DNA from: Dictyostelium discoideum
Lineage: Eukaryota
DNA length: 64,000 nucleotides
Direction: 5' to 3'
NCBI GenBank assembly: GCA_000004695.1
Contig: CM000154.2
Span: 4,512,001-4,576,000, forward strand
In this document: positions 1-46,976 of the stretch, piece by piece
How the letters are laid out: each line of letters starts with the position of its first letter
Numbering within the stretch: position 1 is the first letter of the stretch
Notes under the pieces: generated by a model
Told to the model about the DNA's origin: nothing
Databases searched by the model: none
The model's input: only the letters and a program-made list of their open reading frames with translations
Translations under genes and position numbers: made by a program

Positions 1-5670
<5,670 letters not shown>

Positions 5671-10268: not shown

Positions 10269-10314
<46 letters not shown>

Positions 10315-12288: not shown

Positions 12289-12356
<68 letters not shown>

Positions 12357-16028: not shown

Positions 16029-16080
<52 letters not shown>

Positions 16081-19000
16081 TATATTAGGATTGTTTTGGA
16101 ATTTTTTTAAAACTTCAAAAATGAATTTGAAAAGATTTTCATTTGCTAGACTATTATCATAATATAATTGTTTAAATTGATCATATTCTAATGTTGTTAA
16201 TGATTCTAAATTGATACTTGGACATCTTTTATTAATGTGTTTATAAAATAATGATGGTAATAATCCCTTTGAAATGAATCGATTTCCTTCTTCTTTGACA
16301 CTAAATTCATCTACTCTATATAAATGTTTGAATTGTTCAGGTTTATTGATCATAGAATCTTTTGATTGAAGATATGGTGTATAAATTTCATTTGATGGTG
16401 GTTTACAAATTATAGTACTATCAGGATTGGAGCCAACAATAGTGCAAACTACATTTCCAATATCAACTAATAATGTACCATTTGGAAGTATGATTTTAAT
16501 TGATCCTGAATATGTTTGAGAATTGGTTCTTGCTCTAATTTCAGAGTAAACATATAATTCTTTAATTGTATCATTATTATTGCTATTGTTGTTATTATTA
16601 AATGATGGATAATTTGAAGAGTAAAATTTGAAAGCTTCAATTCTATCAAGTACGATTGGTTGTGTAACTGCAACCAATACTCCATGTAAACAAGTATCTA
16701 AAATTGCTGTATTAAAAAATGTATCCATAATACTATTGTTCAATAAATGATTATATTCTTTTTGATTATAAATTTCATTTAATGATACTATTGTCAATGA
16801 ACAATTACTACCGATATGACATTGTTTTACACCTTGAAATAAACCTTTGTATGTTAAATTTGTTTTAATTCTAATAGTTTCATATAAATCTTGTTTTGAT
16901 ATGCTTGTAAAATTACATTTATCTTTTAATGATTGAATATTAATTGGTTCATTATTTTCAATATTATGTTTGGTTAAACTAAAATTACCAAGAGATGATA
17001 ATATCCATTGATTTGTTTTTTGATCTTTATAATGACTTTTAATATTGAATTCATTCTTTGATAGTGGTGCAATTGTAGTTTGTAAACATTGATTATTACC
17101 TTCTGTTAATACCAATGGTGATTTAAATTCTAATGAGCCAATTGTAATATCTTGATTTGGATAAATTGATAATAAATTGAGAACATATCCCATTCCTGGA
17201 TAATAGAATTTATCACTAACTTGATGACCTTTTAACCATTGGAATGGTAATTTCTTGATATCGATAAATGTTTGATATGATGGATATGGTGAATCTGTAT
17301 TATTACCAAGACTATGAATGGATGGACCTTCATTTTTAATCTTTTCATGAAACGAATTAATTTTAAAGTATTCTTTATCATCCCATTGGTAAAGTGGTAA
17401 ATTATTCAATTGATTTGTATTGTTATTATTGATTAATTGTGATTTGAAATTAATATCAAAATTATTATTGACATATAATAAAGAGATTGTCTTTAAGAAT
17501 TCATTATAATCATTCTTCTTTTTATTTAATGGTGAATAGATTGTAATGTTTTTACCATTATTAAAGTAACTTGATTGAGTTGATTTCATTTGATTTAAGT
17601 AATATTGTAATGTTGGATGTGGTGAAACTTCAATGAATGTAATTTCATTACCCATATCATTTGATTCGATATGTTTGTAAAGATTTGTAATTGTTTGTGT
17701 GAAACGAACTGGTTGGCGAATATTATTAAATACATAATCTGCATTGAATGGTGAGCTTTGATGATTGAATAAATTGGTTGTAACTGTTGAAAATACTGCT
17801 ATCGATGGTTGTTTCGATGAAATATTTAATGAACATACTTCATCTTTAATCATTTGTTGACTTGATGTATGAAATGATGATAATAATCCTAACATTGTAC
17901 AAAAGATATCATTTGATTTGAATTCATTGGTAATTTCATTTAATAAGTCTTCATTACCTGAGATAACGATCGATGTTGGTGAATTGTAACATGCAATTTC
18001 TAATGATTCATATTTAGTTGTAGATTGATATTTATTAATGAATTCATCTGAACTAATATTAACTGATAACATTCTACCTGTACCTATGGTTCTATTTTGA
18101 GCTACTGATCTATGGTAAGTCAAGTAGCATAATGTTTGAAAATCAATTATACCTGAACAATATGACGATGATATTTCACCAAGAGAATGACCAATGATAA
18201 TATCTGCTGAAACACCCCAATGTTTATATAATTCATAAAGTGATACTTGAATGATAACATTTGCAGGTTGTGCTAAAATTGGTTGATGAATTGATATTAA
18301 ATCTTTATCATCAATTGATCTTAATTTATCTAAAACTGAATAACCATAATATTTGAATAACTCTTTATCGAATCTATTGACAGATTCTCTAAATATTGGT
18401 TCATTATCATATAATGACGATGCCATTTTATTATATTGTGAACCTTGACCACATAATACCATTACTGTGATTGGCGATTTCTTTTTTTCAACTGTAATAT
18501 TTGAAATTAAATTATCACTATTTTCTAATTTGATTTGATTATTTTCATCTTGAAATTCATTCCAATCACTTGCGATTATAACTGATTTTTGAATTAATGA
18601 TGTTGATTTGAATTTAATTTGATTATGTACAAATTCTTTAAAACTTGTTGTGGTTGATGATGAATTTGAATGTTTAATTATTGATGATTTATAATTATTT
18701 AATGATGTTGATGAATTACTTGAGAGTGGTATTAAATATTTCTTTTTTTCATTAAATTTATTATCAATTTTGATTTTGTGATAACTATTACTTTTATTAT
18801 AACTAAATTGATTACCATAAAATTCAGATAATATTAAACAAACATTTGAACCTAAATAAAAAACATTATTAAAATATTAATTATTTATTTTATAATAATA
18901 AAATATAATGATATATATTTACCTGTAACACCGAAATTATTAAGTAACATGACAGTTGATTTATTTTCATTAAATTTAATTGGTTCAGTGACAACTTTTA

Positions 19001-25477: not shown

Positions 25478-26840
25478 ATTTTTTTTTTTTTTTTTTTTTT
25501 GATATAAATAAACTATTGTAGTATGTTATTTTTATTTATTTATTTTAGGTTTTTTAGTTTTTGTGAATTTAAAATGGTATGTTATTTTAGATTAGGTAAT
25601 TAATAATTAATTGGTGGTGTAATTGTTGGAATTGGTTCATTAGTGTTTATGCTCCATTCTTTTTTAAATTTTTTGATTGTTTCGGACCATTGGGTTTCTT
25701 TTTGAGTTTTTGTGAGGTTGTTTTTAATTGAGTATTGGTTAAAGTTTGATAATGTTCTTGAATATTCCAATCTTATTAGCTTGTGCCATTTTGATTTTAA
25801 TATATCATAATCTAGTGTTGTGTTGTTTATTTGGTTGTTCCAATTATCAATTGATTGAGTTATATTGATGTCAAATAATGATTTGCATAACCATATCCAT
25901 ATTTGGTGAATAACTAATGAGATTATGTTCCAATATGCATGTGTTCTGACTAGATCAAGATTTGTGTTTATATAATTCCAGTTGAACCTGTATTTTTTAT
26001 ATTGTGCGTTTTCTGGAAAATGAAAATTAATATTGATAGTTGGATCTGGTTTAAATGCTTTGTTGTTTGTTTGTGGTTTATAAATGAGTGTGTATAATTT
26101 TGTTGTTTGGTTTTTTGTTAATGACCAGTTTTTGTTTCCATTGCAATTTTTATATATAAAATATTTTAATTTGTCGTGGTTTATGAAGTTGATTGTGTGC
26201 TGACAATTGAAAAACAAATGACCATAGGGATCATTATTCATTTCATTGTTGCAAATGGGGCAAACTTTGTTGTGTAGATGATTAATCGGAAGACATCTAG
26301 CATGGAATCTTTGCATTGTATCACGGCCTTTTGGATCTTTTAATTTTTGAATTTTGACAAAAAGTTGGTCGTATGTGTATTTCCATAATAGTTGTATTGA
26401 TTGTTGGTGCGAAGTAAGAAGTAGATCTGAATATTTCTTGCCAATATAGTCTTTTGATTTGCATTGGTGATTGTTGAGTATTGTCGAGTAGATTTCTTTG
26501 AGTGTTGGTGGTAGTGAAATATTATTTGTGTTTAATGTTTGAGAGGTTTGGTTTTTTGTTAATATTGGTTGTAGGGTTTGAACTTTATCTTTTAGATGTC
26601 CAATTTGAGTTGCATAGTTTTCCCATTCTTTTTTGATTTTTATAAGGTATGGAGAAGAGATTGATTTGTTGATGATTTGATCCATCCAACTTATCATGTA
26701 TATTGAATTGTTTGCAGATTTATGCTTTTGTAAAAATCTGTTGTATATCCAAATCTTTTGAGCAACTTGTCGTAATTGTATATTCCACATACCCCAACCA
26801 CCTTCTTTTAATGGTGTTTCAACAAATTGAAACAAATTGA
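25478..26840 (-). mobile_element. 5'-truncated non-LTR (LINE-like, possibly TRE-type) retrotransposon 3' fragment: ORF2 C-terminal region with CCHC motif, 3'UTR and poly(A)
   Basis: Minus ORF 25600..26835 (411 aa) lies in a locally GC-richer block. It contains CPICNNEMNNDPYGHLFFNC (C-x2-C-x10-H-x4-C), typical of non-LTR ORF2 C-termini. The + strand T23 run at 25478-25500 is a poly(A) tail about 100 nt after the stop. The ORF begins abruptly at about 26835, next to a short caaattgaaacaaattgaaaca direct repeat (26819-26840). Confidence 0.6.
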
Positions 26841-27648
26841 AACAAGTTTTTTTAATGTTTAAAAAAGGAATCTCTAAAAATAACCTATATTTAAAAATAA
26901 TAAAATTTTTTAAAATTCCAACTTTTTAAAAATGGTTTTTTTATTTTTTAATTGAAAAAAAAAAAAAAATTAAACCCAATTAAACAAAATTTTTTTTCTA
27001 ATTAATCAAACATGATATTATTTTCTCCAAATTTAAAATATTTTTAAATTATTCCACATCATAAAATGTATACATATGTGTATTTTATTGTGAAAAATCC
27101 CCTTGTTAATGAAGGGAAATTTTTTTTGAAATTTCACTACAAAAAGATTTGGTATGAAAATTTGAAAAAGACAAAAAAAAAAAAAAAATTAAAATTAAAA
27201 AAAATATCTTCACGTGGGAATTTATTTTCAGAAAAACCTTTTTTTTTTTTCATTTTTTATTTTTTTTTATTTTTTAAATTCTTAATAATAAATAAAATGA
27301 CAGTAAAATAAACATAAAAACAAAAACCAAATTTACAGACTTTATTTTTAAAATCCCCAACATGATACCGATTATCTCCAAATTTAAAATGTTCCACACT
27401 ATATAAAAAAAAGTGGTACTTGATAATTTTAATTAATATTCATTTTTTTTTATTGGTTCACCTATTTTTAACTGCTTCTTACTATAAAAAATAATAGTAA
27501 AAAAAAAAGTAAATAATGCAAGTTTCTAAAAAAAAAAAAAAATATAAATTAAAAAAAAAAAAAACAAAATTTAATTTTAAAATTAATTTAGAATTATTTC
27601 TGGTAATAACTAATAGAGATATTCCTCAACTAAAATAACTAAGCACCA

Positions 27649-30600
27649 ATGAATAATTTAGAAATTATAAATTTAATAGATAAAGGTGTTGCAATTGTTG
27701 GGGTGGGGTTTAGAATTCCTTCTGGTAATAATGAAAATTCAATTTGTTCACCAGATGATTTATTTAATAATTTAAAGAATGGTTTTGATGGTGTTAGTAG
27801 TACATCAGAAAGATGGAGTGACAATTTTCATAAATTAGGTGAAATTAGTAGTCCAAATGCAGGTTTATTACCATTTAATGAATGCAAATCATTCGATCCA
27901 TTATTTTTTGGTATTAATCCATCCGATGCTCATCAGATTGATCCTCAACAAAGATTATTATTAAAATGTACATGGGAAGCATTAGAAGATGCATCTATCG
28001 ATCCAATTTCAATTCGTGGTACAAATACTTCAGTTTTCATTGGTTCTTCAAATATTGATTATCAACATATAAATAAACACCAAGACTCAGTTTTAAAAAA
28101 TGTAATAGCACAATCTGCCTATGCTGTTTCAAATAGAATTTCATACTGTTTCGATTTTAATGGTCCATCATTATCAATCGATACTGCATGTTCATCATCA
28201 TTAAATGCAGTTTCTCAAGGTTATCATTCAATATTAAATGGTACTTCCAATATGTCAATTGTTGGTGGTGTAAATTTAATATTAGGTAAGAATTACATTT
28301 AAATATATTATATATAAAATACACTCATTAATTAATTTTTTATTTAAATATTTTACTAGATGTTGGAATGATAAAAGCATATTCGTATTTAAGCATGTTA
28401 AGTAAAACACATGGTAAATGTAAAGCATTTGATGAAAGTGGCGATGGTTTTACACGTGGTGAATGTGCTACTATTGTAGTTTTAAAAAATTTACAAGATG
28501 CAGTTAAAGATGGTAATAGAATTTATTGTGTAATTAATGGCTCAAGTTCAAACGTTGATGGCGGCGGTCATATGGATAAAGTTAACCTTTATTCACCATC
28601 AAAGCAATCACAATTTAATAATATTAATTCAGCATTTAAATCAACCAATGGTAAACTTTCAATTAATGATATTCAATATATCGAAGCACATGGTACTGGT
28701 ACTAAAACAGGCGATCCAATTGAAACTGAAGCAATTTCAATGGCTTTTAAAAATAGAGATAAATCAACACCAATTCTAATTGGTTCAATTAAAAGTAATA
28801 TTGGTCATTGTGAAGCTGGTTCAGGTGTTGCATCATTAATCAAATGTTGTTTAATGTTTAAATATCAATGCTTTTTACCAAATATTCATTTCAAAAATCC
28901 AAATCCATTAATTAAATTCAATGAATGGAATTTAAAAGTTGTAACATCACCAATTCCATTCAACAAAAGAATTAATGAAAAACCAGTTTCAATGATGATT
29001 AATAACTTTGGTGTAACAGGTTCAAATTGTTGTTTACTTATTTCAGAATTTAAAAAACAAGATTATGAATCATATGAAAACAACAACAACAACAAAAGTA
29101 ATCATAAAAATATATTAATACCATTCTCAGCAAATTCATCAAATTCATTAAATCAATACCAATCAAAATTTAAAAATATAATTAATAATCAATTCAATTT
29201 TATTGATTTTACCGCAAATCAAATTTATTCAAAATCAAATTATCTTTATCAAAGATCAGTTGTAATTGCAAGTAATTCAAATGAACTTTTTGAAAAAATT
29301 TTAAATAAAAAACAAATTCAAACTAAAAATTCAATCATTTCGAATATGTCATTCAAAGGAAAGAACCCAATTACAATTTTTGTTTTTTCAGGTCAAGGAT
29401 CACAATATCCTAAAATGGCTTTAGAATTATATAATAATGATGAAATTTTTAAGAAGTCAATTGATTTAATCGATTCAAAATTATCAAAGTACTATGGTTA
29501 TTCAGTATGGGGGAAGTTAACAACGATCAAAGATGATGACTTGACCTCAATACATGATCCAATTTTCGCACAACCAGCACTGTGTATGCTTTCAGTATCA
29601 CTATTTGAAATATATTGCCATTGGGGAGTAAATCCATCATTTATTCTTGGTCATAGTCTTGGTGAAATTTCAGCAGCATATTGTTCTGGAATGATCGATT
29701 TAGATACATTCTGTTATACAGTTTATTACAGATCAATCGCCCAATCTAAAACAAATGGTTGTGGTAGAATGTTATCAATTAATATCAGTGATGAAGAATT
29801 TAAATCAATGTATTCTCAAAAGTATCCACAAATTGAAATTGCGTGTTATAATTCACCTCAATCAATTGTTGTGGCAGGTAATGAATCAATATTAAATGAA
29901 ATTTCGAAAGAATTAAAAGAAAAAGAAATTTTCACTGCAATGTTAGGTTCATTATCATCATTCCATACAAGTAGTCAGCAATGTACAAAAGATAGTATAT
30001 TACAACTAAACATTGAAAGTAATCAACCAAAAGTACCAATATTTTCAACAGTTACAACAAATTTATTTAATGAATCAAATCGATTTAATTCACAATATGT
30101 TTATGATAATATTATCAAACCAGTTAAATTCACACAAACAATTTCAAATATTTATAAACATATCGAATCAAATCAATTAAATAATGATATTGTATTCATT
30201 GAAATTGCACCACATCCAACAATATCATTTTATATTAAGCAAATGGTACCATCAAGTTTAAATGAATCAGTTTCAGTTTATTCAGCACTTCACAAGAAAA
30301 AGAATGATGTCGAAGAGTTTCAACAAACCATTTCAAATTTATATTGTCAAAATGGATATAGTATTAATTTTAAATGTCAATTGGAAAATAAAAAATCAAA
30401 TCAATCAATAAATTTACCACTTTACCAATGGGATGATGAATTATACTTCGCTCAAACTCAAACACTTGAACAATATACAAAAGAAGGACCACCAATCGAT
30501 CATCTTGGTCTATCAAACTCTTATTATTCACCATTTAAAAATTCATATAGAACATTTATTGATATAAATAATAAACCATTCCAATATCTTAAAGGTCATA

Positions 30601-33600
30601 TGGTTAAAGGTAAATACTACTTCCCAGGTTGTGGTTATATCGATATTATTATTCAACTTTATAAAAATCAAGATATTTTTATTAGTTTTATTGAATTTAA
30701 AACACCATTAATTTTAATTGAAGGTATCAATCAATATTTACAAACAAACATTCAACAAACTGGTAAAAGTGAATATCGTGCACAATTTCATTTCAAAGAT
30801 CAAAAATCAAATGAATGGATTCAATCATCAAATGCAAATTTCCAATTATTAGATCATGGTAATGATATACCATCAAATTATAATATTGAAGAAATTATTA
30901 AAAACAAATGTAATTTGAGCAAATTAACAAAGAATGAACTTTATACACAAATAAAATCAAAAACTGGTTTGAATTATACTGGTGTTTTTCAAGGTGCTAC
31001 TGAATGTTATTTAGGTAATGATTGTTCATTATCAGTTTTATCTTTAAAATCTCAAACAAATTCATTTTTAAATATACCAATTTTAGATACATGTTTACAT
31101 GGAATGTTAGTATTAATAAATGATCAAAGTCAAATTGTATTTGATAAAGCCATTGGATTTAAATATTATTCATCAAACATACCATCGGATCTTAAAGAAT
31201 ATAAAGATAGTATTTATGTTTATTCCAATTTAAAACCAAAAAATGCTGATTCATACCATGGATCTATTATAGTAATGTTATCAGATGGTTCAGTTTTATA
31301 TGAAATTCAAGAAGTTATTTTTAAATCATTAATTCCAATCAAACATTCACTTAAAATTGAGTATCCAAATGATGAATTATACAAAGTTCATTTACAATCA
31401 AAAGATTCTCAAATTCCAACGCCATCATCATTCAAATCAATTATTTATGAAAATGATTTCTTCCATTCTGCACTTAATATTCCAGAAGATTTATTCAAAT
31501 ATATTTCAACATTATTTTATAAAGATATTATAAAAAGATGTCCAGAAATTAATATCAATAAAATTAATTCTCATAGTGTTAATGAAATTATTTCAAGTTT
31601 CAGTAAAATTTCAAAAAATCAAAGATTATTTAGATTTGTATTTGAAACAATAAAAGAGAATGGTATTCTTAATAGTTTGGAAGAAAATGATGATGCTTAT
31701 TTCGAATTTAATGAATTAGTTATTAAATCATCAAAAATTATTTCAAAATTATTATTCCCACTAGAAAGTGATAATGATAATGAAGATTTACCTCAATCAT
31801 TATTTCAAAATGGTTTAATGGATAAAATTTATAAATGCAGTTATTTAAGAAAGAAGTATCAAATGATTTCACATGTCATTATACATTCAATTAAAGAGAT
31901 TATTAATAATAATATTATAATTAGAATTTTAGAATTTGGAGGAGGCACTGCGTCATTATCAGTTGAAGTTATTGGAGAAATCGTTGCATTACTTCAAGAG
32001 AATCCAAATTATCAAGTTGAAATCGAATATACATGGAGTGATATTTCACCTGCATTCATAGCAGATGCAAAGAATAAAATCAATAAAATCATTAATGATG
32101 CTGCTATAACAAATGGATTAAATGTTATTTATCGTTCATTAACAATCGATGAATCATTGCTTGAAAATCAAGCAATTAAACCATCATATTATGATTTCGT
32201 TATAATGTCAAATGTTCTTCATGTTGTTAAAAATATTAAACAAGCTGTAGAACAAATGTATCAATTGTTAACACCGAATGGTCAATTGCTATTTATAGAA
32301 CCACCTTATAAATCAGTTCTAATCGATTCAATCATTGGTTCATTTGAACAATGGTGGTCATTCACTGATACTGATATTAGAAAAGATAGATGTGGTATGT
32401 CTCAACAAAGTTGGTATCAATTATTAAAGACATGTAATTTTAAAGACATTTTAATGTCAAAAGAATGCATCTTTGTTGGGTCAGTAATACATGCACAAAA
32501 ACCACCAATTTCTTTATTGAATTCTCAACCAAAACATGATAATATAATTATATATGGTGGTGGTGGTAATTTAAGTTTTGTAGAAAACATCAAATTAGAT
32601 TCAAATTCAAAAAGTTTAATTCAAATTGAAACTATTCAAGAATTTAATCAATTATTAAGTCAATCAACAATTACAAATGATTCAATAATTTATTTCATAA
32701 AAACATTAGAAACATTATCATTGGATAATTATAAACAAATAACTCTTGAATATATTGAAATCAATCAAAGACTATTACAAATCAATAGTTTATGTAAACA
32801 TGTATTAATTGTTAGTGATTCAAGAAAAACTAACTATTTAGCATCATCAGTTGTTGGTGCTGCAAGATACTTTGATGAATTCCAACAATTGAAATTACAC
32901 ACATTAGATTTTGATTATGATTCAACTCAAAATTATATAAATTCAAAAAATAACAAAATGGTTCAATTCATTAATATCTTGGTGGACTCCAAAACAAATG
33001 TTCATAAAGAAATGATTATAATTAATAACAAAGTATATTATGAAATAGTTCAAAAAGAGAAAAATCTAAAACTAAAATACAATTCAGAATCTTTTGAAAA
33101 TCAAAATAATTTAATGTGTTCATTATCACCAAATTTAGAATATCAATTACAATCAAAACAAATTAAATTAAGAGATAATCAAGTTGAAGTTAAAACAATT
33201 GCAACTGGTATCAATTATAAAGATTATTTAAATTTTAGCGGTTCAAATAATAATAATGGTGATGACAATACAGGTTTACCACAATTTGGATATGAATTTT
33301 CAGGTATTATAACAAGAGTTGGTAATAATGTAAAAGATTATAAAGTTGGTGATAATGTATTTGGTTTATCAAATTCTTGTACATCATCCCACATTGTTAC
33401 AAATTTTAAAAATATTCAATTAAAACCTTCAAACATAAGTCATAACGAAGCATCATCAATTCCAATTGATTATTTAACATCATTTATGAGTTTATTTAAT
33501 GTTGGTAGTTTAAATATTGAAGATAATGAATCAATTCTAATTCATTTAGGTAGTGATAGTTTTGGATTATCAACATTTGAAATATTAAAATGGAAAGGTT

Positions 33601-35267
33601 TTAAATCAAATTTATTCGTTACAGTTGATTTGGACGAAACTAAACAATATCTTCTAGATAGATATGGTGATTTTATTACTGGAATTTATTCAAACACAGA
33701 TAAAAGTTATGTTACAGAAATAAAAAACGAATTAATTAAATTAGGTTCAAAAAAGAAAGGAGTAGATTTAATATTAAATACATTACCAAGTGATTTTATG
33801 GATTCAAATTTCGAGTTATTAACAAAGAGTGGTAGAATAATTGATTTAACTTCAAATCATTTAAATCAAAGTGAATTTTTAAAAAATATCAATTTTAAAT
33901 ATAACCATGGTTACCACAACTTTCAGTTATCATTAATTCAAAAAAATAAAATACAAAAATGTTTATATGAAATTTCACATGCTATTGAAAATGGAGAATT
34001 AAAAACTATTCCAATTAAAGAATTTACAAATTTAAATATTAAAGATGCCATCAAATACATTACCAACGGTAACATTGAAAAAATTACAGTTAGTCATGAT
34101 CATGAAATTTATAGTGATATTATTTATAGATCTTTAGATGAAAAAGAGTTTTCAATATTAAAATCAAATTATCAAATTAATTCAAATAATTTAGGTAAAA
34201 ACATATTAATTACAGGTCAATCAGGTATTATTTTAGAAATATTAAAATGGATCATTAAATATTCAAATATTAACACAATTGAAAATGTTATTATTCTTTC
34301 AAGATCATCATTAAAATGGGAATTAGAATTATTAATTAATCAAACTAAACTATCAAATAATAATATTAAATTTCATTTCAAGAGTGTTGATGTCGGTGAT
34401 AGTGAACAAGTTGATAATGCAATCAATGAAATATTAAATGAAAATCAACAAATTACAAATATTGATTCAATATACCATTTTGCATTTCAACAAATTACAT
34501 GTAAAGTTCAAGAAATCAATATGAAACATTTAGATATTTCACATGGAGCAAAATCAATGGGTGCAGTTAATTTACATAATCAATCAATTAAACGTAATTG
34601 GAAATTAATTAATTTTGTTATGGCTTCTTCTGCACTTTCATTAATAGGTTCAACAGATCAATGTACATATGCCTGTGCAAACCTATTATTAGATTCATTT
34701 TCAAAATACAGAGAATCACTTGGATTACCATCTGCTTGTATTAACCTTGGGTCAATTGAATCAACTGGTTTCGTTTCAAAGAATGAATCAATTTCAGAAT
34801 TTACAGATGGCATTGGTTACGTTCCAACACCTATCAATCTAGTTTTAGGTCTTTTAGATTTACAAATTCAAAATGCAGGTAAATTTACGAATTCAATGCT
34901 TTCAAATTTAATATCATCAAAATTTAAAAATATTCAACAAACATCATTATTTCTAAAATTTGATTACTTGATGAATTTAAATGACAACAGTGAACAAACT
35001 AAAAAAGAGAATATTGGAAATAAAAACATTGATGAATTATTCATTGAGAAAGTTTCAGAATTATTTTCAACGGATCAATCAAGAATAAATAAAAATCTTA
35101 GATTAATTGATTATGGCGCAGATTCATTAATAATAGTTCAATTAAAGAATTGGATAGATAAAGAAATTGGTATAAATTTAATAACAATTAAACAACTTCA
35201 AAACAATACAATTAATATTTCAATCAAAATGATATTAAATTCATTAATGAAAAATAATCAAATATAG
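27649..35267 (+). CDS. Type I reducing PKS-C (KS-AT-DH-CMeT-ER*-KR-ACP), 2 exons: join(27649..28285,28360..35267), about 2514 aa; terminal R domain lost
   Basis: ATG at 27649 ([27 protein letters not shown]). KS: [10 protein letters not shown], a 74-bp phase-1 intron after VGGVNLILG, then [14 protein letters not shown] and [12 protein letters not shown]: GQGSQ and GHSLGE. DH: [11 protein letters not shown]. CMeT: [12 protein letters not shown]. Degenerate ER motif: [16 protein letters not shown]: [15 protein letters not shown]. It terminates with ...NSLMKNNQI* at 35267, where PKS-D continues into about 415 aa of R domain. Confidence 0.85.
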
Positions 35268-35639
35268 ATGACAATAATAATACATACAATAGATATTAAC
35301 CCAATGAAAATCAAAACATTACTAGAATTATCAACAGATAATGGGTGATCTTGAAATTTTTTATTTAAATAAGATTCAAATTTTACTTTGCGTTTTTTTT
35401 ATTTAATATTTTTAGATTTGGGTAGTTTTGGACATTATAAAATAAAAAATCTAAATCTAAATAAAATAAAAAATACAAATCTAAATTATTCTTTTTTATA
35501 AAAAAAAAAAAAAAAAAAAAAGTCAAATCAACATAAAAACATCTTCAGACATTATTTTTAAAATTGAATTTATAAAAAAAATTTTATTTATAAAAATAAA
35601 ATTTTTTCTCAATTAATATAGATATTTCAAAACTAAATT

Positions 35640-37120
35640 ATGAATAATTTTAAAAAATATAAATTTAATAGATAAAGGTGTTGCAATTGTTGGGGTGGGG
35701 TTCAGAATTCCTTCTGGTAATTATGAAAATTCAATTAGTTCACCAGATTATTAAATTTAATAATTTAAAGAATGGTTTTGATGGTGTTAGTAGTACATCA
35801 GAAAGATGGAGTGACAATTTTCATAAATTAGGTGAAATTAGTAGTCCAAATGCAGGTTTATTACCATTTAATGAATGCAAATCATTCGATCCATTATTTT
35901 TTGGTATTAATCCATCCGATGCTCATCAGATTGATCCTCAACAAAGATTATTATTAAAATGTACATGGGAAGTATTAGAAGATGCATCTATTGATCCAAT
36001 TTCAATTCGTGGTACAAATACTTCAGTTTTCATTGGTTCTTCAACTATCGATTATCAACTGTTTCGATTTTAATGGTCCATCATTTTCAATGCATGTTCA
36101 TCATCATTAAATGTTGTTTAATGTTTAAATATCAATGCTTTTTACCAAATATTCATTTCAAAAATCCAAATCCATTAATTAAATTCAATGAATGGAATTT
36201 AAAAGTTGTAACATCACCAATTCCATTCAACAAAAGAAATAATGAATTACCAGTTTCAATGATGATTAATAACTTTGGTTTAACAGGTTCAAATTGTTGT
36301 TTACTTTTAACAGAATATAAAAAACAAGATTATGAATCATATGAAACTATCTACAAAAATGATAATAGTAAAAATATATTAATACCATTTTCAGCAAATT
36401 CAACAAATTCATTAAATCAATACCAATCAAAATTTAAAAATATAAATAATAATCAATTCAATTTTATTGATTTTACCGCAAATCAAATTTATTCAAAATC
36501 AAATTATCTTTATCAAAGATCGGTTGTAATCGCAAGTAATTCAAATGAACTTTTTGAAAAAATTTTAAATAAAAAACAAATTCGAAATAAAAATTCAATC
36601 ATCTCAAATATGTCATTCAAAGGAAAGAATCCAATTACAATTTTTGTTTTTTCAGGTCAAGGATCACAATATCCTAAAATGGCTTTAGAATTATATAATA
36701 ATGAAGTAATCTTTAAAAAATCAATTGATTTAATCGATTCAAAATTATCAAAGTACTATGGTTATTCAGTATGGGAGAAGGTAAAAAAAATCAAAGATTA
36801 TGATACTACTTCCATTCATGATCCAACTATTGTACAACCAGCAGTGTGTATGTTTTCAGTATCATTATTTGAATTGTATTGCCATTGGGGAGTAAATCCA
36901 TCATTTATTCTTGGTCATAGTATTGGTGAAATTTCAACATTATATTGTTCTGGAATAATCGATTTAGATACATTTTATCACAGATCAATAGCACAAACTA
37001 AAACACACTGTAATGGTGGGCATCCACTGATATTGATATTAGGAAAAATAGATGTAGTATGTCTCAACAAAGTTGGTATCAATTATTAAATAACAGTAAT
37101 TATAAAGACATTGCAATGTG
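35640..37120 (+). pseudogene. Mosaic PKS pseudogene between PKS-C and PKS-D: promoter and 5' end copy, KS N-terminal fragment, deletion, KS C-terminus plus AT fragment, deletion, short CMeT fragment
   Basis: 35655-35700 duplicates the C and D 5' ends (aaatttaatagataaaggtgttgcaattgttggggtgggg). ORF-track fragments 35678..36073 and 36073..37089 read KS, AT ([22 protein letters not shown]) and a DIRKDRC...QQSW CMeT fragment in shifted frames. There are multiple indels and no intact frame. Confidence 0.8.
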
Positions 37121-37766
37121 CATGCTAAAATTAAAAAGATTCCTTTATTGTATCCAAAAAATAAAAGTGAAAAAAAAAAAAAAAAGAATGGTTTAAAAAA
37201 AAAAAAAAAAGGGTTAAAAATATAATAAATTAATTTTTAATAAATGTTGAGAGAAAGTATTTAAATTTTTTTTTTATTTTATTTTTTATTTTTTTTTTTT
37301 TTCCTATTCTCTGGGATTATAATCTGAAAAAGGGTTTTTTTTTTTTAAACAAATATGGGCTTACTAATAATTTAAATTGGTAAAAAAAAACAGAAAGGAT
37401 GATATATACAAAAAAAAAAATATTTTTTGTCCTTGAATATAATTTTTTCAAATATTATATCATTGTTGTTTTATAATTAATTTGAATTTGTATAATTTTA
37501 TGAATTTTATCTGGTGTGAATCTGCAAAAAATTTTATATTTTTTTTTATTTTTTTATCTGGTGGAAATCTACAAAAAAAACAACAATAAATCTATAGATT
37601 TAAAAAATTAAAAAATCGTCATTATTTTTTTTTTTGGTATGGCTTTCTCTAAACGAATCCCCACGAAAAAAAATTATAAACTTCTAATTTTCTAAGGCCA
37701 CAGTGCTGCACAAAATTACTTTTCACTTTATAGTGCTGAAATTTTTACATCCAACCCCCAAAATTT

Positions 37767-37803
<37 letters not shown>

Positions 37804-38114
37804 CATATGTACAAAAAAATAAATAAAAATAAATAATTTAACAACAAAATGAACACAAAAACAAAATACATTTCTTCAAGTATTATTTTTAAAATAAATC
37901 AAATGTGCTGTTAGTTAATCTCCTGAATAAAAATTTTTTATAAATTTTACCACATAAAGCCTTTAAAAAAAGTTTGTGTTTAATAATTTTAATTAATAAA
38001 ATCATGTAAATAATGAAAGTTTTTTAAAAAAAATATAAATTTAAAACAACAATATTTAATTTTAATAAAAAATTTTCTTCACTAATTTTGATATTTCAAA
38101 ACTACTAAATACCT

Positions 38115-41100
38115 ATGGGTAATTTAAAAAATATAAATTTAAAAGAGAAAGGAGTTGCAATTGTTGGTATTGGATTTAGAATTCCTTCTGGTAATAATGA
38201 AAATTCAATTAGTTCACCAGATGATTTATTTAATAATTTAAAGAATGGTTTTGATGGTGTTAGTAGTACATCAGAAAGATGGAGTGACAATTTTCATAAA
38301 TTAGGTGAAATTAGTAGTCCAAATGCAGGTTTATTACCATTTAAAGAATGGAAATCATTCGACCCATTATTTTTTGGTATTAATCCATCTGAAGCTCCAT
38401 TAATCGATCCTCAACAAAGATTATTATTAAAATGTACATGGGAAGCATTAGAAGATGCATCTATTGATCCAATTTCAATTCGTGGTACAAATACTTCAGT
38501 TTTCATTGGTTCTTCAACTATTGATTATTTACATACAAATAAACATCAAGACTCAGTTTTAAAGAATGCAATAGCACAATCAACCAGTGCGATTTCAAAT
38601 AGAATTTCATACTGTTTCGATTTTAATGGTCCATCACTATCAATTGATACTGCATGTTCATCATCATTAAATGCAGTTTCTCAAGGTTATCATTCAATAT
38701 TAAATGGTACTTCCAATATGTCAATTGTTGGTGGTGTAAATTTAATATTAGGTAAGGATTATTATTTTTTTTTTAAAATTAAAAATACACTTATTAATTA
38801 AAATTTATTTTTATTAGATGTTGATATTATAAAAGCATATTCGATTTTAAGCATGTTAAGTAAAACACATGGTAAATGTAAAACATTTGATGAAAGTGGC
38901 GATGGTTTTACACGTGGTGAATGTGTCGGTGTTGTAGTTTTAAAGAATTTACAAGATGCAGTAAAAGATGGTAATAGAATTTATTGTGTAATTAATGGTT
39001 CAAGTTCAAATGTTGATGGTAATGGTAATATGGATAAAGTTAACTTTTATTCACCATCAAAACAATCACAATTTAATAATATTAATTCAGCATTTAAGTC
39101 AACAAATGACAAACTCTCGATTAATGATATTCAATATATCGAAGCACATGGTACCGGTACTAAAACAGGCGATCCAATTGAAACTGAAGCAATTTCAATG
39201 GCTTTTAAAAATAGAGATAAATCAACACCAATTCTAATTGGTTCAATTAAAAGTAATATTGGTCATTGTGAAGCTGGTTCAGGTGTTGCATCATTAATCA
39301 AATGTTGTTTAATGTTTAAATATCAATGCTTTTTACCAAATATTCATTTCAAAAATCCAAATCCATTAATTAAATTCAATGAATGGAATTTAAAAGTTGT
39401 AACCTCACCAATTCCATTCAACAAAAGAAATAATGAAAAACCAGTTTCAATGATGATTAATAACTTTGGTGTAACAGGTTCAAATTGTTGTTTACTTATT
39501 TCAGAATTTAAAAATAACAATAACTTTAAAGAGAATATTAATTTAGAATCTCAAAGTGTTAATGATAGAGTGTTAATACCATTCTCAGCAAATTCATCAA
39601 ATTCATTAAATCAATACCAATCAAAATTTAAAAATATAATTAATAATCAATTCAATTTTATTGATTTTACCGCAAATCAAATTTATTCAAAATCAAATTT
39701 TCTTTATCAAAGATCAGTTGTAATTGCAAGTAATTCAAATGAACTTTTTGAAAATATCTCAAATAAAAAACAAATTCAAACTAAAAATTCAATCATCTCA
39801 AATATGTCATTCAAAGGAAAGAACCCAATTACAATTTTTGTTTTTTCAGGTCAAGGATCACAATATCCTAAAATGGCTTTAGAATTATATAATAATGAAG
39901 TAATCTTTAAAAAGTCAATTGATTTAATCGATTCAAAATTATCAAAGTACTATGGTTTTTCAGTATGGGAGAAGGTAAAAACAATCAAAGATGATGACTT
40001 AACCTCAATACATGATCCAATTTTTGCCCAACCAGCACTATGTATGATTTCAGTATCACTATTTGAATTATATTACCATTGGGGAGTAAATCCATCATTT
40101 ATTCTTGGTCATAGTCTTGGTGAAATTTCAGCATCATATTGTTCTGGAATGATTGATTTAGATACATTCTGTTATACAGTTTATCAAAGATCAATAGCAC
40201 AATCTAAAACAAATGGTTGTGGTAGAATGTTATCAATTAATATCAGTGATGAAGAATTTAAATCAATGTATTCTCAAAAGTATCCACAAATTGAAATCGC
40301 ATGTTATAATTCACCTCAATCAATTGTTGTGGCAGGTAATGAATCAATATTAAATGAAATTTCAAAAGAATTAAAAGAAAAAGAAATTTTCACCACAATG
40401 TTAGGTTCATTATCATCATTCCATACAAGTAGCCAACAATGTACAAAAGATAGTATATTACAACTAAACATTGAAAGTAATCAACCAAAAGTACCAATAT
40501 TTTCAACAGTTACAACAAATTTATTTAATGAATCAAATCGATTTAATTCACAATATGTTTATGATAATATTATCAAACCAGTTAAATTCACACAAACAAT
40601 TTCAAATATTTATAAACATATCGAATCAAATCAATTAAATAATGAAATTGTATTCATTGAAATTGCACCACATCCAACATTATTATTTTATATTAAACAA
40701 ATGGTACCATCAAGTTTAAATGAATCAGTTTCAGTTTATTCAGCACTTCATAAGAAAAAGAATGATGTCGAAGAGTTTCAACAAACCATTTCAAATTTAT
40801 ATTGTCAAAATGGATATAATATTAATTTTAAATGTCAATTTAATAATAAAAAATCAAATCAATCAATAAATTTACCACTTTACCAATGGGATGAAGAATT
40901 ATATTTCACTCAAGCCCAAACTCTCGAACAACATAGAAAAGAAGGACCACCAATTGACCATCTTGGTACATCAAACTCTTATAATTCACCATTTAATAAT
41001 TCATATAGAACATCAATCGATATAAAGAATAAACCATTTCTATATCTTAAAGGCCATATGGTTAAAGGTAAATACTACTTCCCAGGTTGTGGTTATATTG

Positions 41101-44100
41101 ATAATATTATTCAACTTTATAAAAATCAAGATATTTTTATTAGTTTTATTGAATTTAAAACACCATTAATTTTAATTGAAGGTATCAATCAATATTTACA
41201 AACAAACATTCAACAAACTGGTAAAAGTGAATATCGTGCACAATTTCATTTCAAAGATCAAAAATCAAATGAATGGATTCAATCATCAAATGCAAATTTC
41301 CAATTATTAGATCATGGTAATGATATACCACCAAAGTATAATATTAAAGAAATTATTGAAAACAAATGTAATTTAAGCAAATTAACAAAGAATGAACTTT
41401 ATACACATATAAAATCAAAAACTGGTTTAAATTATACTGGAGTTTTTCAAGGTGTTACTGAATGTTATATAGGTGGTGATTGTACATTATCAGTTGTATC
41501 TTTAGAATCTCAAACAAACTCATTTTTAAATATACCAATATTAGATACTTGTTTACATGGAATGATAGGATTGTCAAATGATCAATGTCAAATTGTATTT
41601 GATAAAGCTATTGGATTTAAATATTATTCATCAAACATACCAGCAAATTTAAAAGATTATAAAGATAGTGTTTATGTTTATTCCCATTTAAAATCAAAAA
41701 GTGTTGATTCATTCTTTGGATCTATAATAGTAATGTTATCAGATGGTTCAGTTTTATATGAAATTGAAGAAGTTGTTTGTAAATCATTAATTCCAATCAA
41801 AGATTCACTTAAAATTGAGTATCCTAATGATGAATTATACAAAGTTCATTTACAATCAAAAGATTCTCCAATTCCAACACCATCATCATTCAAATCAATT
41901 ATTTATGAAAATGATTTCTTCCATTCTGCACTTAATATTCCAGAAGATTTATTCAAATATATTTCAACATTATTTTATAAAGATATTATAAAAAGATGTC
42001 CAGAAATTAATATCAATAAAATTAATTCTCATAGTGTTAATGAAATTATTTCAAGTTTCAGTAAAATTTCAAAACACGAAAGATTATTTAGATTTGTATT
42101 TGAAACAATAAAAGAGAATGGTATTCTTAATAGTTTGGAAGAAAATGATGATGCTTATTTCGAATTTAATGAAGTAATTATCAAATCGTCAAGAATTATT
42201 TCAAAATTATTATTCCCACTAGAAAGTGATAATGATAATGAAGATTTACCTCAATCATTATTTCAAAATGGTTTAATGGATAAAATTTATAAATGCAGAT
42301 ATTTAAGAAAGAAGAATCAAATGATTTCACATGTTATTAAACATTCAATTAAAGAGATTATTAATAATAATATTATAATTAGAATTTTAGAATTTGGAGG
42401 AGGTACTGCATCATTATCAGTTGAAGTTATTGAAGAAATAATTGCATTACTTCAAGAGAATCCAAATTATCAAGTTGAAATCGAATATACATGGAGTGAT
42501 ATTTCACCTGCATTCATAGCAGATGCAAAGAATAAAATCAATAAAATCATTAATGATGCTGCTATAACAAATGGATTTAATGTTATTTATCGTCCATTAA
42601 AAATTGATGAATCATTGATAGAAACTCAATCAATTAATCCATCATATTATGATTTCGTTATAATGTCAAATGTTCTTCATGTTGTTAAAAATATTAAACA
42701 AGCTGTAGAACAAATGTATCAATTGTTGACTCCAAATGGTCAATTACTATTTTTAGAGCCACCTTATAAATCAGTTCTAAATGATTCAATAGTTGGTTCA
42801 TTTGAACAATGGTGGTCATTCACTGATACTGATATTAGAAAAGATAGATGTAGTATGTCTCAACAAAGTTGGTGTCAATTATTAAAGACATGTAATTTTA
42901 AAGACATTGCAATGTCTAAAGAATGCATCTTTGTTGGTATTGTAATACATGCACAAAAACCACCAATTTCTTTATTGAATTCTCAACCAAAACGTGATAA
43001 TATAATTATATATGGTGGTGGTAATCCAATTTTTGTAGAAAACATCAAATTATATTCAAATTCAAAAAGTTTAATTCAAATTGAAACTATTCAAGAATTT
43101 AATCAATTATTAAGTCAATCAACAATAACAAACGATTCAATCATTTATTTCATAAAAACATTAGAAACATTATCATTGGATAATTTTAAACAAATAACTC
43201 TTGAATATATTGAAATCAATCGAAAATTATTACAAATCAATAGTTTATGTAAACATGTATTAATTGTTAGTGATTCAAGAAAAACTAACTATTTAGCATC
43301 ATCAGTTGTTGGTGCAGCAAGATACTTTGATGAATTCCAACAATTGAAACTAAATACTTTAGATTTTGATTATGATTCAACTCAAAATTATATAAATTCA
43401 AATAATAAAGATATGGTTCAATTCATTAATATCTTGACAGATTCCAAAACAAATGTTCATAAAGAAATGATTATAATTAATAATAAAGTATATTATGAAA
43501 TAGTTCAAAAAGAGAAAAATCTAAAATTAAAATACAATTCAGAATCTTTTGAAAATCAAAATAATTTAATGTGTTCATTATCACCAAATTTAGAATATCA
43601 ATTACAATCAAAACAAATTAAATTAAGAGATAATCAAGTTGAAGTTAAAACAATTGCAACTGGTATCAATTATAAAGATTATTTAAATTTTAGTGGTTCA
43701 AATAGCAACGGTGATGACAATACAGGTTTACCACAATTTGGATATGAATTTTCAGGTATTATAACAAGAGTTGGTAATAATGTAAAAGATTATAAAGTTG
43801 GTGATAATGTATTTGGTTTATCAAATTCTTGTACATCATCTCACATTGTTACAAATTATAAAAAAATTCAAATAAAACCTTCAAACCTAAGTCATAACGA
43901 AGCATCATCAATTCCAATTGATTATTTAACATCATTTATGAGTTTATTTAATATTGGTAGTTTAAATATTGAAGATAATGAATCAATTTTAATTCATTTA
44001 GGTAGTGATGGTTTTGGATTATCAACATTTGAAATATTAAAATGGAAAGGTTTTAATTCAAATTTATTCGTTACAGTAAATTCATATGAAACTAAACGAT

Positions 44101-46976
44101 ATCTTCAAGATAATTACGGTGATTTTATTACTGGAATTTATTCAAACACAGATAAAAGTTATGTTACAGAAATAAATAAAAAATTAATTAAATTAGGTTC
44201 AAAAAAGAAAGGAGTAGATTTAATATTAAATACATTACCAAGTGATTTTATGGATTCAAATTTCAAGCTATTAGCAAAGTATGGTAGAATAATTGATTTA
44301 ACGTCAAATCATTTAAATCAAAGTGAATTTTTAAAAAATATCAATTTTAAATATAATCATGGTTACCATAACTTTGAGTTATCATTAATTCAAAAAAATA
44401 AAATTCACAAATGTTTATATGAAATTTCAAATGCTTTTGAAAATGGAGAATTAAAAACCATTCCAATTAAAGAATTTACAAATTTAAATATTAAAGATGC
44501 CATCAAATACATTACCAACAATAAAATTGAAAAAATTACAGTTAGTCATGATCATGAAATTTATAGTGATATTATTTATAGATCTTTAGATGAAAAAGAG
44601 TTTTCAATATTAAAATCAAATTATCAAATTAATTCAAATAATTTAGGTAAAAACATATTAGTCACAGGTCAATCAGGTATTATTTTAGAAATATTAAAAT
44701 GGATCATTAAATATTCAAATATTAATACAATTGAAAATGTTATTATTCTTTCAAGATCATCATTAAAATGGGAATTAGAATTATTAATTAACGAAACTAA
44801 ACTATCAAATAATAATATTAAATTTCATTTCAAGAGTGTTGATATCGGTGATAGTGAACAAGTTGATAATGCAATCAATGAAATATTAAATGAAAACCAA
44901 CAAATTACAAATATTGATTCAATATACCATTTTGCATTTCAACAAATTACATGTAAAGTTCAAGAAATCAATATGAAACATTTAGATATTTCACATGGAG
45001 CAAAATCAATGGGAGCAATTAATTTACATAATCAATCAATTAAACGTAATTGGAAATTAATTAATTTTGTTATGGCTTCATCTGCAATTTCATTAATAGG
45101 TTCAACTGATTTATGTACATATGTTTGTGCAAATGCATTATTAGATTCATTTTCAAAATACAGAGAATCACTTGGATTACCATCAACTTGCATTTGCCTT
45201 GGTGCAATTGAATCAACTGGTTTCGTTTCAAAGAATGAATCAGTTTCAGTATTTTTAGACGGTGGTGGTTTCCATCCAACACCAATCAATCAAGTTTTAG
45301 GCCTTTTAGATTTACAAATTCAAAATGCTGGTAAATTCACAAATTCAATGCTTTCAAATTTCAAACCCTCAAAATTTAAAAATAATCAACAAACATCATT
45401 ATTTTTAAAATTTGATTACTTGATGAATTTAAAAAACAATAGCGAAGAAACCAAAATAGAGAATACTGGAAATAAGAACATTGATGAATTATTCATTGAG
45501 AAAGTTTCAGAATTATTTTCAATGGATGAATCAAAGATAAATAAAAATCTTAGATTAATCGATTATGGTGCAGATTCACTAATAATAGTTCAATTAAAAA
45601 ATTGGATAGATAAAGAAATTGGTATAAATTTAATAACAATTCAACAACTTCAAAACAATACAATTAGCACTTCAATGAAAATGATATTAAATTCATTAAT
45701 GAAAAATAATCAAAATATAGATGACAATAATAAAGACCTACCTTCAAATAGAATCGATTATTGGAAGAATGAAATGAAATTTGAAGAGTCTATTAAACCA
45801 ATATCAAATGAAATACAATCAAGGAATAATTCAGAAAAAATTATTTTATTAACCGGTACAACTGGTTTTTTAGGTGGTTTCTTATTATTCAATATGGTAA
45901 GATTAGATTCATGTAAATTAATTTATTGTTTAATTAGAAATAAAAGTAAATCAAATAATCCATTAGATGAAATTATAAATAATTTAAAATATCATCAACT
46001 TTATGAAAAATTAAATCAATCACAAATTTCAAAGATTATACCAATTATTGGTGATTTATCAATGAATAAACTTGGTCTTTCAAATGATGATTATGAAACA
46101 ATTTCAAAAAATGTAAATTTAATAATCAATCCAGGTGCAGATATTAATCAAAAATCAAGTTACCAAGATTGTAAATTAGTAAATGTAAATGGAGTAAAAG
46201 AAATTATTAAATTATCATTATCATCATTAAAACAAAGGATACCAATTGTAAACTTTTCATCATTTTCAGTATTTTTCAATCAATCACTTGATAAGAATTT
46301 TGATGAATCAGTTTTACCATCAATTGATAATATTGATAATTTACCAACAGAATATATGAAGAGTAAAGTTGTTGGTGAATATATTTTATTGGAAGCTTCT
46401 AAAAAATATAATATACCATCAATTTTAATTAGACCACCAAGTATATTTTTAAATCCAGAAACAGGTATTGGTCATATTAGTGACTTCTCTTTATTATCAA
46501 TCCAATCATGTTATGAATTAGGTTATTATCCAAATCAATTTGAAAATGATTTTATTTTAATTAATACAATTACATGGTTATCAAATAATATTACAAATAT
46601 TATAATGAATGATAATTGTTGGACAGATTCAAAAATGAATATTTATAATGTACATGGTAAACAAATTCAATCAAGTTTAATAATTAAACCACTTGAAAAA
46701 CATTTCAATTGTAAACATATCAATACTAATGATTGGATTGATATGGTAAATAATTCAAATAAAAAATCATGTATTAAATTAAAATCATTCCATTCTTTGG
46801 ATATAATTTTAAAAAGTGAAAACAATAGATATAAACCCAATGAAAATCAAAGCATATCATTATCAACCAAATCATTACTAGAATCAATGGGCTCATACAA
46901 CACTGATCTTGAAATCACTGATAAAATGATTATTTCTCATATTAATCAAATTTTTAATTTAAATGAAACAATTTAA
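38115..46976 (+). CDS. Type I reducing PKS-D, complete (KS-AT-DH-CMeT-ER*-KR-ACP-R), 2 exons: join(38115..38751,38818..46976), about 2931 aa
   Basis: ATG at 38115 ([27 protein letters not shown]). A 66-bp intron follows VGGVNLILG (GTAAGG..TAG). The rest is one open frame to TAA at 46974-46976 (...NLNETI*). The terminal reductase is contiguous, with no intron. Confidence 0.88.
39140..39290 (+). other. PKS-D KS domain C-terminal catalytic motifs (HGTGT at about 39147, NIGH about 39255)
   Basis: [14 protein letters not shown] and [14 protein letters not shown] read in the PKS-D frame. The active-site Cys (DTACSSS) is in exon 1 at about 38650. Confidence 0.8.
39840..40130 (+). other. PKS-D acyltransferase domain core (GQGSQ about 39846, GHSLGE about 40108)
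   Basis: [13 protein letters not shown] and [16 protein letters not shown]. Confidence 0.8.
42385..42425 (+). other. PKS-D C-methyltransferase SAM-binding motif I ([12 protein letters not shown])
   Basis: LExGxGxG-type motif between DH and ER, followed by the [11 protein letters not shown] post-I motif. Confidence 0.75.
43985..44040 (+). other. PKS-D ER-domain nucleotide-binding position, degenerate ([13 protein letters not shown] instead of HSAAGGIG)
   Basis: Direct comparison with PKS-A (about 2360-2400, [13 protein letters not shown]) and PKS-B (about 14050-14100, same intact motif). Confidence 0.75.
45556..45600 (+). other. PKS-D ACP phosphopantetheine attachment site ([15 protein letters not shown])
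   Basis: DSL serine motif about 50 aa before the Asn/Asp-rich linker. Confidence 0.8.
45840..46976 (+). other. PKS-D C-terminal SDR-type thioester reductase (R) domain
   Basis: [16 protein letters not shown] (TGxxGFLG NAD(P)-binding, about 45843-45890) and [10 protein letters not shown] (YxxxK, about 46353-46385). Confidence 0.75.

Follow-up and report, generated by a model that had tools for sequence, protein, structure and literature searches.

Probable loss of the terminal reductase domain through an old in-frame deletion in the apparently maintained polyketide synthase gene pks8/35 of Dictyostelium discoideum

In the tandem polyketide synthase (PKS) cluster of Dictyostelium discoideum, the coding sequence of pks8/35 stops just after its ACP domain and is followed by a fragment of the 3′ end of a reductase (R) domain that the neighbouring pks9/36 carries in full, which raises the question of whether pks8 is a broken copy of an R-bearing synthase or a maintained synthase with no release domain of its own. 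The window analysed here, i.e. the whole 64,000-nucleotide stretch of DNA to which all coordinates refer, is approximately 22% GC and contains several type I PKS genes, and a search of it for tRNA genes found none.

An earlier sequence-only reading had named the two genes PKS-C and PKS-D. PKS-C is the D. discoideum AX4 ‘Probable polyketide synthase 8/35’ (DDB_G0271618 / DDB_G0295667, XP_001732964.1), the spliced model matching the 2514-aa database protein exactly, and PKS-D is ‘Probable polyketide synthase 9/36’ (2931 aa, likewise an exact match to the spliced model). The protein predicted for pks8/35 is the same in three records. The features of the two genes are as follows.

27649-28285, forward strand: exon 1 of pks8/35, from the start codon to the GT donor at 28286, encoding the N-terminal part of KS; splicing yields XP_001732964.1 exactly
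28286-28359, forward strand: sole intron of pks8/35, with GT...AG ends, removal of which gives the exact database protein; used as a neutral comparator
28360-35267, forward strand: exon 2 of pks8/35, encoding KS (C-terminal part)-AT-DH-MT-ER-KR-ACP according to Pfam domains, ending in TAG at 35265-35267, with no internal stop
35004-35261, forward strand: C-terminal ACP of pks8/35 (PF23297, ACP_SdgA_C; residues 2213-2298 of the ORF starting at 28368), the last domain, with GADSL present
38115-38751 and 38818-46976, forward strand: exons of pks9/36 (PKS-D), giving the 2931-aa spliced model

Pfam matches for KS, AT, DH, MT, ER, KR and ACP were found in both pks8 and pks9, whereas NAD_binding_4 (PF07993) was matched only in pks9 (E = 6e-52) and not in pks8; no terminal R release domain follows the pks8 ACP, an R 3′ remnant of approximately 100 non-coding nucleotides being all that is left. 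The catalytic motifs of pks8 are otherwise largely those of an intact synthase. Its KS matches both ketoacyl-synt and Ketoacyl-synt_C and has DTACSSS, HGTGT and NIGH all present (Cys-His-His), its AT matches Acyl_transf_1 (E = 1e-43) with GHSLG at residue 643, and its ACP matches ACP_SdgA_C (E = 4e-29) with the phosphopantetheine-attachment motif GADSL at residue 2465. The DH motif HxxxGxxxxP, the MT motif EFGGGTA and the KR motif GQSGII are also present, with Pfam finding KR, Methyltransf_12 and ADH_N, while the ER nucleotide (NADPH) motif is degenerate (HLGSDSFG), as it is throughout the pks6-9 clade. Judged from these domains and motifs, pks8/35 appears to be an iterative, highly reducing type I PKS of the order KS-AT-DH-MT-ER-KR-ACP.

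As had been claimed from the sequence alone, the two genes are colinear up to the end of the ACP: the DNA aligns at 93.7% identity (27501-35280 to 37998-45733), the proteins are 92% identical over their common 2.5 thousand codons, the intron position is the same, and both proteins run through ...MKNNQ. Beyond this point the two genes part, and the pieces of the junction in pks8, their counterparts in pks9 and the sequence between the genes are given below.

35260-35262, forward strand: A-run, AAA in pks8 against AAAA at 45712-45715 in pks9; the 1-nt deletion puts TAG (35265-35267) in frame
35263-35280, forward strand: ACP-R linker leftover tatagatgacaataataa, colinear with 45716-45733 of pks9, lying at and after the stop codon
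35281-35285, forward strand: junction filler tacat, 5 nt, aligned to neither side
35286 to ~35385, forward strand: decayed R remnant of the last ~50 R codons, homologous to 46822 to ~46952 of pks9; non-coding, with stops in all frames
45734-46821, forward strand: the stretch of pks9 absent from pks8, 1088 nt, containing the entire NAD_binding_4 core (45849-46565)
46822-46976, forward strand: 3′ end of pks9/36, the intact counterpart of the remnant, comprising the last 51 codons and the stop
35507-37119, forward strand: additional, degraded PKS copy lying between pks8 and pks9, not part of pks8

Direct reading bears out the missing A, since pks8 reads caa-ata-tag at 35259-35267 where pks9 reads caa-aat-ata-gat (then gac aat aat aaa gac). 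The left side of the junction is identical to pks9 at 19 of 19 positions by blastn (35262-35280 against 45715-45733), and the order in pks8 is gatgacaataataa (35267-35280), tacat, then acaatagatattaaccc..., which corresponds to pks9 from 46822 onward. The proposed jump to sequence homologous to the 3′ end of the R domain is likewise confirmed, with blastn finding 84% identity over 50 nt from 46822 onward (E about 1e-9) and a local alignment score of 66 against 34.8 +/- 4.9 for dinucleotide shuffles, none of 300 of which reached that score; the homology is firm to 35357 and weaker past that point. The R domain is thus gone and the junction does lie near its 3′ end, but the remnant corresponds to the last 51 codons of pks9, which are downstream of the Pfam NAD_binding_4 match and not inside it. 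The deletion itself, put at roughly 1.3 kb in the sequence-only reading, was overestimated: 1088 nt of pks9 (45734-46821) are missing and, with the 5-nt filler subtracted, the net loss is 1083 nt, i.e. 361 codons, and the deletion was therefore originally in frame. When the missing A is restored, the tail reads NRY(K)PNENQ, as in the native frame of the R tail of pks9, and without the 1-nt deletion the pks8 frame would end 12 codons later, at a TAA that is a single A>T change. An intron skipping the TAG was considered and rejected, there being no GT from the stop to 35345 and the remnant being stopped in all three frames. The 2514-aa annotation model of pks8 is correct.

Copies from related genomes, drawn from the collection described in PMC12745789, were compared at the same position. 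NDH2, which adjoins the cluster, has a dS of ~0.12 between AX4 and the two cryptic sister lineages (ACTFIY and ACTFIZ), and of 0.05-0.07 between AX4 and two diverged D. discoideum isolates. ACTFIY (D. cf. discoideum GCA_054859205.1) retains just a 3′ fragment of pks8, and its junction, ...GATGACAATA joined to AACCCAATGAAAAT.AAA.CATTACT.GAATT, belongs to the same junction family as that of AX4 pks8. The end of this fragment (...CAAAATATAGATGACAATA joined to AACCCAATGAAAATAAAATCATTACTCGAATT) matches AX4 pks8 on both the left and right sides, has AAAA in the A-run, and shares with AX4 pks8 a secondary loss of 20 nt from the tail, in which CAAAGCATATCATTATCAACCAAATCATTAC of pks9 has become CAAAaCATTAC. 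The degraded copy at 35507-37119 of the window was compared with the additional R-bearing gene that ACTFIY has and was rejected as its counterpart, its 5′ part being 96.9% identical to pks8 and ~90% to that gene. In ACTFIZ (D. cf. discoideum GCA_054859235.1), the gene at the pks8 position encodes 1647 aa after an internal deletion of ~2.85 kb and ends in ...LMTNK* through a CAA>TAA change, with an R-tail remnant lying directly after the end of its ACP (local score 96). The right-hand breakpoints of these three copies (46822, ~46830 and ~46833) are spread over ~11 nt, and the economical reading of the alignments would be one ancestral deletion followed by small secondary deletions, with no selection acting on that side.

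A different junction is found in g2, the positional orthologue of pks8 in GCA_054859355.1, which is also R-less (2525 aa). It is colinear with pks9 to 45760 (...NIDGNNKNLPSNRID*), retaining 27 nt more linker than pks8, and then continues into unrelated sequence; one ancestral deletion therefore cannot account for every copy. The R-less neighbour pks7 resembles pks8 in its length (2513 aa) and in ending five residues past ...MKNNQ, but it differs in having another junction (CAA joined to TGTGGAAGGGA...) and no R-tail remnant, and this third junction type is shared with its orthologue g1 of GCA_054859355.1 (CAA joined to TGTSGAAGGGA). The loss of the R domain from pks7 was independent of that from pks8 and is common to GCA_054859355.1. 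No R-tail remnant scoring above the shuffles was found 3′ of g2, g1 or pks7, and a match to GATGTTGAAAG picked out by eye in g2 was rejected as a remnant, not being significant. The end of ACTFIW_000318 (...NTDTNNKYLPSN) is possibly a fourth truncation, while GCA_054859385.1 lacks pks8, and between its pks6 and pks9 lies only a pks7 fragment of 1.3 kb. Loss of the R domain just after the ACP has thus happened more than once in this cluster, and whole copies have been gained and lost. As the counterparts of pks8 are degraded or absent in ACTFIZ, ACTFIY and GCA_054859385.1, the gene is dispensable in some lineages.

Whether what remains of pks8 is maintained was addressed through the pattern of substitution along its coding sequence. 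The ORF is intact over 2514 codons, all indels relative to the paralogues are in frame, and no disabling mutations were found in the remaining coding region. The NG86 method gives pks8 a dN/dS of 0.27 when compared with g2, its positional orthologue, and of 0.30-0.36 when compared with the paralogues, well away from the value of about 1 expected of a pseudogene, with the caveat that gene conversion may depress it; the comparators are 0.23 for pks7 against g1 (both R-less) and 0.21 for pks9 against its orthologue (both R-bearing). Because gene conversion occurs in the cluster, counting was restricted to changes unique to pks8 at positions where all six other copies agree. They number 69 in total, of which 40 are nonsynonymous and 29 synonymous; N/S is therefore 1.38, where neutrality would give 2.5-3.7 (binomial p = 0.002), omega is ~0.45-0.63, and the same ratio is seen in the R-bearing pks9 (35:24) and pks6 (49:31). 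At the protein level, 34 amino-acid replacements are unique to pks8. None of the unique changes creates a stop codon, where approximately 6 would be expected from synonymous unique-change rates or 3-5 from kappa-model stop fractions, and the replacements are mostly conservative, with the KS, AT, DH, MT, KR and ACP motifs intact. The constraint on pks8 is moderate but real, and no weaker than that on the neighbours that keep the R domain.

The alternative that bears most directly on these values is that pks8/35 is a non-functional relic, in which loss of the R domain killed product release and the ORF has since been kept open by conversion from pks6, pks7 and pks9. In sliding windows the nearest neighbours of pks8 form a mosaic, some segments being 1.8-3% from pks7, and in another strain a tract of g2 is only 0.5-1.2% from its neighbour g3, indicative of recent conversion; the process could therefore help to hold the ORF of pks8 open. 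The degraded or lost counterparts in three other genomes and the degraded PKS copy directly downstream of pks8 are also in keeping with a relic. However, the unique changes of pks8 did not come by conversion from any sampled copy and are nonetheless skewed away from replacements and stops, to a degree of constraint equal to that of R-bearing pks9 and pks6, and within the same genome no window is less than 1.8% from any paralogue. Further, the adjacent remnant has accumulated 8 indels in ~120 nt where the 7.5-kb ORF has none out of frame, and ACP-terminated relatives are functional (PMC9618038; PMC12625978). A relic is therefore considered unlikely, although it is the alternative that fares best. 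The reading favoured is that pks8 is a synthase that most likely lost its R domain through an old in-frame deletion and has been maintained since, and from its retained motifs and constraint we infer that it is probably functional as an enzyme. In the literature that could be searched, also under pks35 and the DDB_G identifiers, nothing turned up on the expression, the protein or the product of pks8/35. AX4 holds two identical pks8 copies, which complicates read mapping; AX2 does not have the chromosome 2 duplication.

A second alternative, put forward in the sequence-only reading as a ‘recently inactivated copy’, is that both the frameshift and the deletion arose recently, in a gene whose R domain was working until lately. 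It draws on the 1-nt deletion, which is seen only in the AX4/AX2 copy, and on the longer linker of g2, which would allow R-bearing pks8 alleles to have persisted for some time. The decay of the remnant argues against it. Relative to the tail of pks9, the remnant carries 15.1% substitutions and 8 gap events, most of them of a length not divisible by three, as against 14.3% and 7 gap events in the intron and 15.7% and 7 gaps in the 5′ flank of the same two genes, both neutral comparators, and as against 5-8% divergence with no internal gaps for the same R tail (the 46822-46976 stretch) among functional copies. The remnant having decayed like the intron and 5′ flank, the tail has been non-coding for approximately as long as the two genes have been diverging. 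The junction family and the secondary 20-nt deletion are, moreover, shared with lineages at the NDH2 distance given above, and the 1-nt deletion costs a short tail of only 12 codons. Together with the purifying selection on the 7.5-kb ORF, these observations make a recent inactivation very improbable, and the deletion of the R core from pks8 is old. Nor do the frameshift and the deletion form a single lesion, as had been assumed: with AAA seen only in the AX4/AX2 copy and AAAA in pks9, in g2 and in the ACTFIY and ACTFIZ copies, the 1-nt deletion in the A-run is the younger of two events of different age, the in-frame deletion having come first.

It is hardly credible that the lesion is an artefact of the AX4 reference, i.e. 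a homopolymer miscall combined with a collapse between tandem paralogues, even if an A-run amid tandem paralogues 93-95% identical is an error-prone setting, as an independent AX2-like assembly from Nanopore and Illumina (long and short) reads, GCA_054883475.1, holds 35200-35420 of the window exactly (and 25519-45268 at 99.87%), the same protein is predicted in three records, and related junctions occur in other genomes. The exact agreement of an independent assembly shows that the lesion is real, and the assembly error offered earlier as a possible refutation has failed.

The history that best fits these observations would begin with an ancestor of pks8 whose C-terminus bore a thioester reductase (R) domain resembling the one in the neighbouring pks9/36. 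A single old in-frame deletion, 1088 nt in pks9 coordinates and 1083 nt net, would have taken the R core and joined the ACP-R linker to the final ~50 R codons. The leftover tail, having no function, would then have decayed through the repeat-flanked 20-nt deletion, further indels and the A>T change that made the TAA. Finally, in the lineage of NC4, AX2 and AX4, the 1-nt deletion in the A-run would have moved the stop to its present position two codons past ...MKNNQ, which is the place at which naturally ACP-terminated Dictyostelium PKSs end. Purifying selection would have continued on the remainder of pks8, an R-less synthase from whose ACP the product would be freed in the absence of a release domain in cis, as happens in PKS5, whether by hydrolysis or with the help of an enzyme acting in trans. 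Confidence in this history is higher than in the function of pks8, which is held to be probable.

Terminal R domains carry out reductive release, and pks9, which unlike pks8 has kept its NAD_binding_4 reductase at the C-terminus, with both TGTTGFLGG and YxxxK, is hence expected to make an aldehyde or alcohol. The product expected of pks8 is instead of acid type, on a presumed mode of release. The alternative raised in the sequence-only reading, that of a release-domain-less synthase, is therefore supported, but such a synthase is not unusual: among the best 120 homologues, more than half are synthases of ~2500 aa without PF07993, including the nearest relatives from D. citrinum, D. firmibasis and D. 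dimigraforme, and these R-less relatives end 5-10 residues past the ...IKIILN.L.K... segment, where pks8 now ends. PKS5, which has the architecture KS-AT-DH-MT-ER-KR-ACP and makes the dictyodenes, which are polyene acids, shares with pks8 the domain order and the lack of a release domain (PMC9618038). Like pks8, it ends a few residues past the ...IKIILN.L.K... helix and lies in the same tandem cluster, of which it is the head (the first gene of pks5-pks9). Its product and expression are known. It differs from pks8 in sequence, at ~81% protein identity as judged from its closest cluster relative and a dS of ~0.27, and in its R-less state being much older and common to the D. citrinum and D. firmibasis relatives. 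Knockouts of pks5 and pks7 have been studied by comparative metabolomics, and that of the R-less pks7 led to the loss of a few metabolite features (PMC12625978). The ACP-terminated PKS architecture is accordingly both normal and productive in D. discoideum, and pks8 fits into a known family as one of its ordinary members, with nothing about it that is surprising for that family.

Some fungal highly reducing PKSs that lack a release domain are off-loaded in trans by a separate hydrolase or thioesterase, as LovB is by LovG. These enzymes resemble pks8 in being iterative and in ending in an ACP (or a non-releasing domain). LovB has its hydrolase partner, whereas no gene for a candidate trans-acting hydrolase was found among the ORFs neighbouring pks8, and release in trans is presumed in its case. 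Its neighbours are an unclassified ORF (25600-26835, reverse strand) with no Pfam family and weak zinc-finger hits, a P450 and NDH2.

For the prediction of products, pks8/35 is best handled, like PKS5, as a synthase that ends in an ACP and releases its product non-reductively, and neither as a broken copy of pks9 nor as an enzyme with reductive release, and the frameshift gives no ground for flagging pks8 as a pseudogene in genome annotation. At least three separate truncations are found within ~50 nt after the ACP, namely those seen in pks7, in pks8 and in g2 of GCA_054859355.1, and it can tentatively be proposed, as a possibility somewhat short of an even chance, that loss of the R domain is a recurrent and selectively retained form of product diversification in the pks5-9 cluster. 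If this were so, each truncation would make a synthase that releases aldehydes or alcohols into one that releases acids, with selection still acting on the remainder of the enzyme, and the product of pks8 would be the acid-type analogue of that of pks9. The pks5-9 cluster provides a dated example of tandem PKS paralogues shifting their release chemistry through domain deletion.

Further features of the polyketide synthase (PKS) genes and their surroundings were seen in the window, from Dictyostelium discoideum AX4, and in the compared sequences (ER, enoylreductase-position PKS domain; R, chain-release thioester reductase domain; L-numbers, loci from compared sequences).

Features in the window and the compared loci
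Window 1-5532, + strand: R-bearing PKS gene of another subfamily, inverted pair
Window 6166-10326, + strand: deletion derivative flanked by the inverted pair
Window 11001-16424, - strand: R-bearing PKS gene of another subfamily, inverted pair
Window 25600-26835, - strand: 411-aa ORF adjoining the pks8 promoter
Window 33480-33503: ER nucleotide-binding motif, pks8 residues 1941-1948, with the equivalent position in pks9
Window 35507-37119, + strand: heavily deleted PKS copy between pks8 and pks9
L001 ~11500-13000 versus L003: low-divergence tract of g2 and g3 in GCA_054859355.1
L002 17597-17620 and L001 7575-7600: pks7 truncation junction
L008 3588-4880, - strand: DDE transposase gene (DDE_Tnp_1 / DDE_Tnp_4) of the ACTFIY cluster

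The degraded copy between pks8 and pks9 begins with an upstream region and KS N-terminus that share 96.9% identity with pks8's own 5' end, continues with a KS-C/AT segment and finishes with 108 nt matching pks8 at 32350-32457. Its start region carries a frameshift, and it is annotated as two ORFs (116 and 331 aa) in the independent AX2-like assembly GCA_054883475.1. The inverted genes of the other subfamily are 94.6% identical to one another and 65-70% identical to pks8, and in the derivative that they flank, AT-DH is joined directly onto the KR end plus ACP. At its truncation junction, pks7 is cut exactly 3' of a CAA (Q) codon and then joined to TGTGGAAGGGAAATTTAA..., the initial 11 nt being common to pks7 and its GCA_054859355.1 orthologue. 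In the ACTFIY cluster (GCA_054859205.1, D. cf. discoideum), degraded PKS fragments adjoin the DDE transposase gene, which may be involved in local rearrangements.

The positional pks8 orthologue g2 and its neighbour g3 differ by 0.5-1.2% over ~1.5 kb (alignment columns 1500-3000) versus 5-9% elsewhere, a sequence pattern that points to recent gene conversion between tandem PKS genes.

The match of the window to the AX2-like assembly, which is without the chromosome 2 duplication, begins at ~25480-25519, at a poly-T run, 5' of which lies pks7 in the AX2-like strain versus a P450 and other PKS genes in the window. The AX4 chromosome 2 tandem duplication probably has its junction at this position, in which case the window would be the pks35/pks36 copy. 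The 411-aa ORF matched no Pfam family; it contains a CxxC...HxxxxC zinc-finger-like motif, and its position is annotated as a 348-aa gene in GCA_054883475.1.

At the nucleotide-binding motif of the ER domain, every pks6-9 copy has HLGSD(S/G)FG, and pks5-like and D. firmibasis relatives have H(S/T)..GG(V/I)G. The ER domain may be inactive across the whole young pks6-9 clade, which, if true, would weigh more on product prediction than the loss of the R domain.
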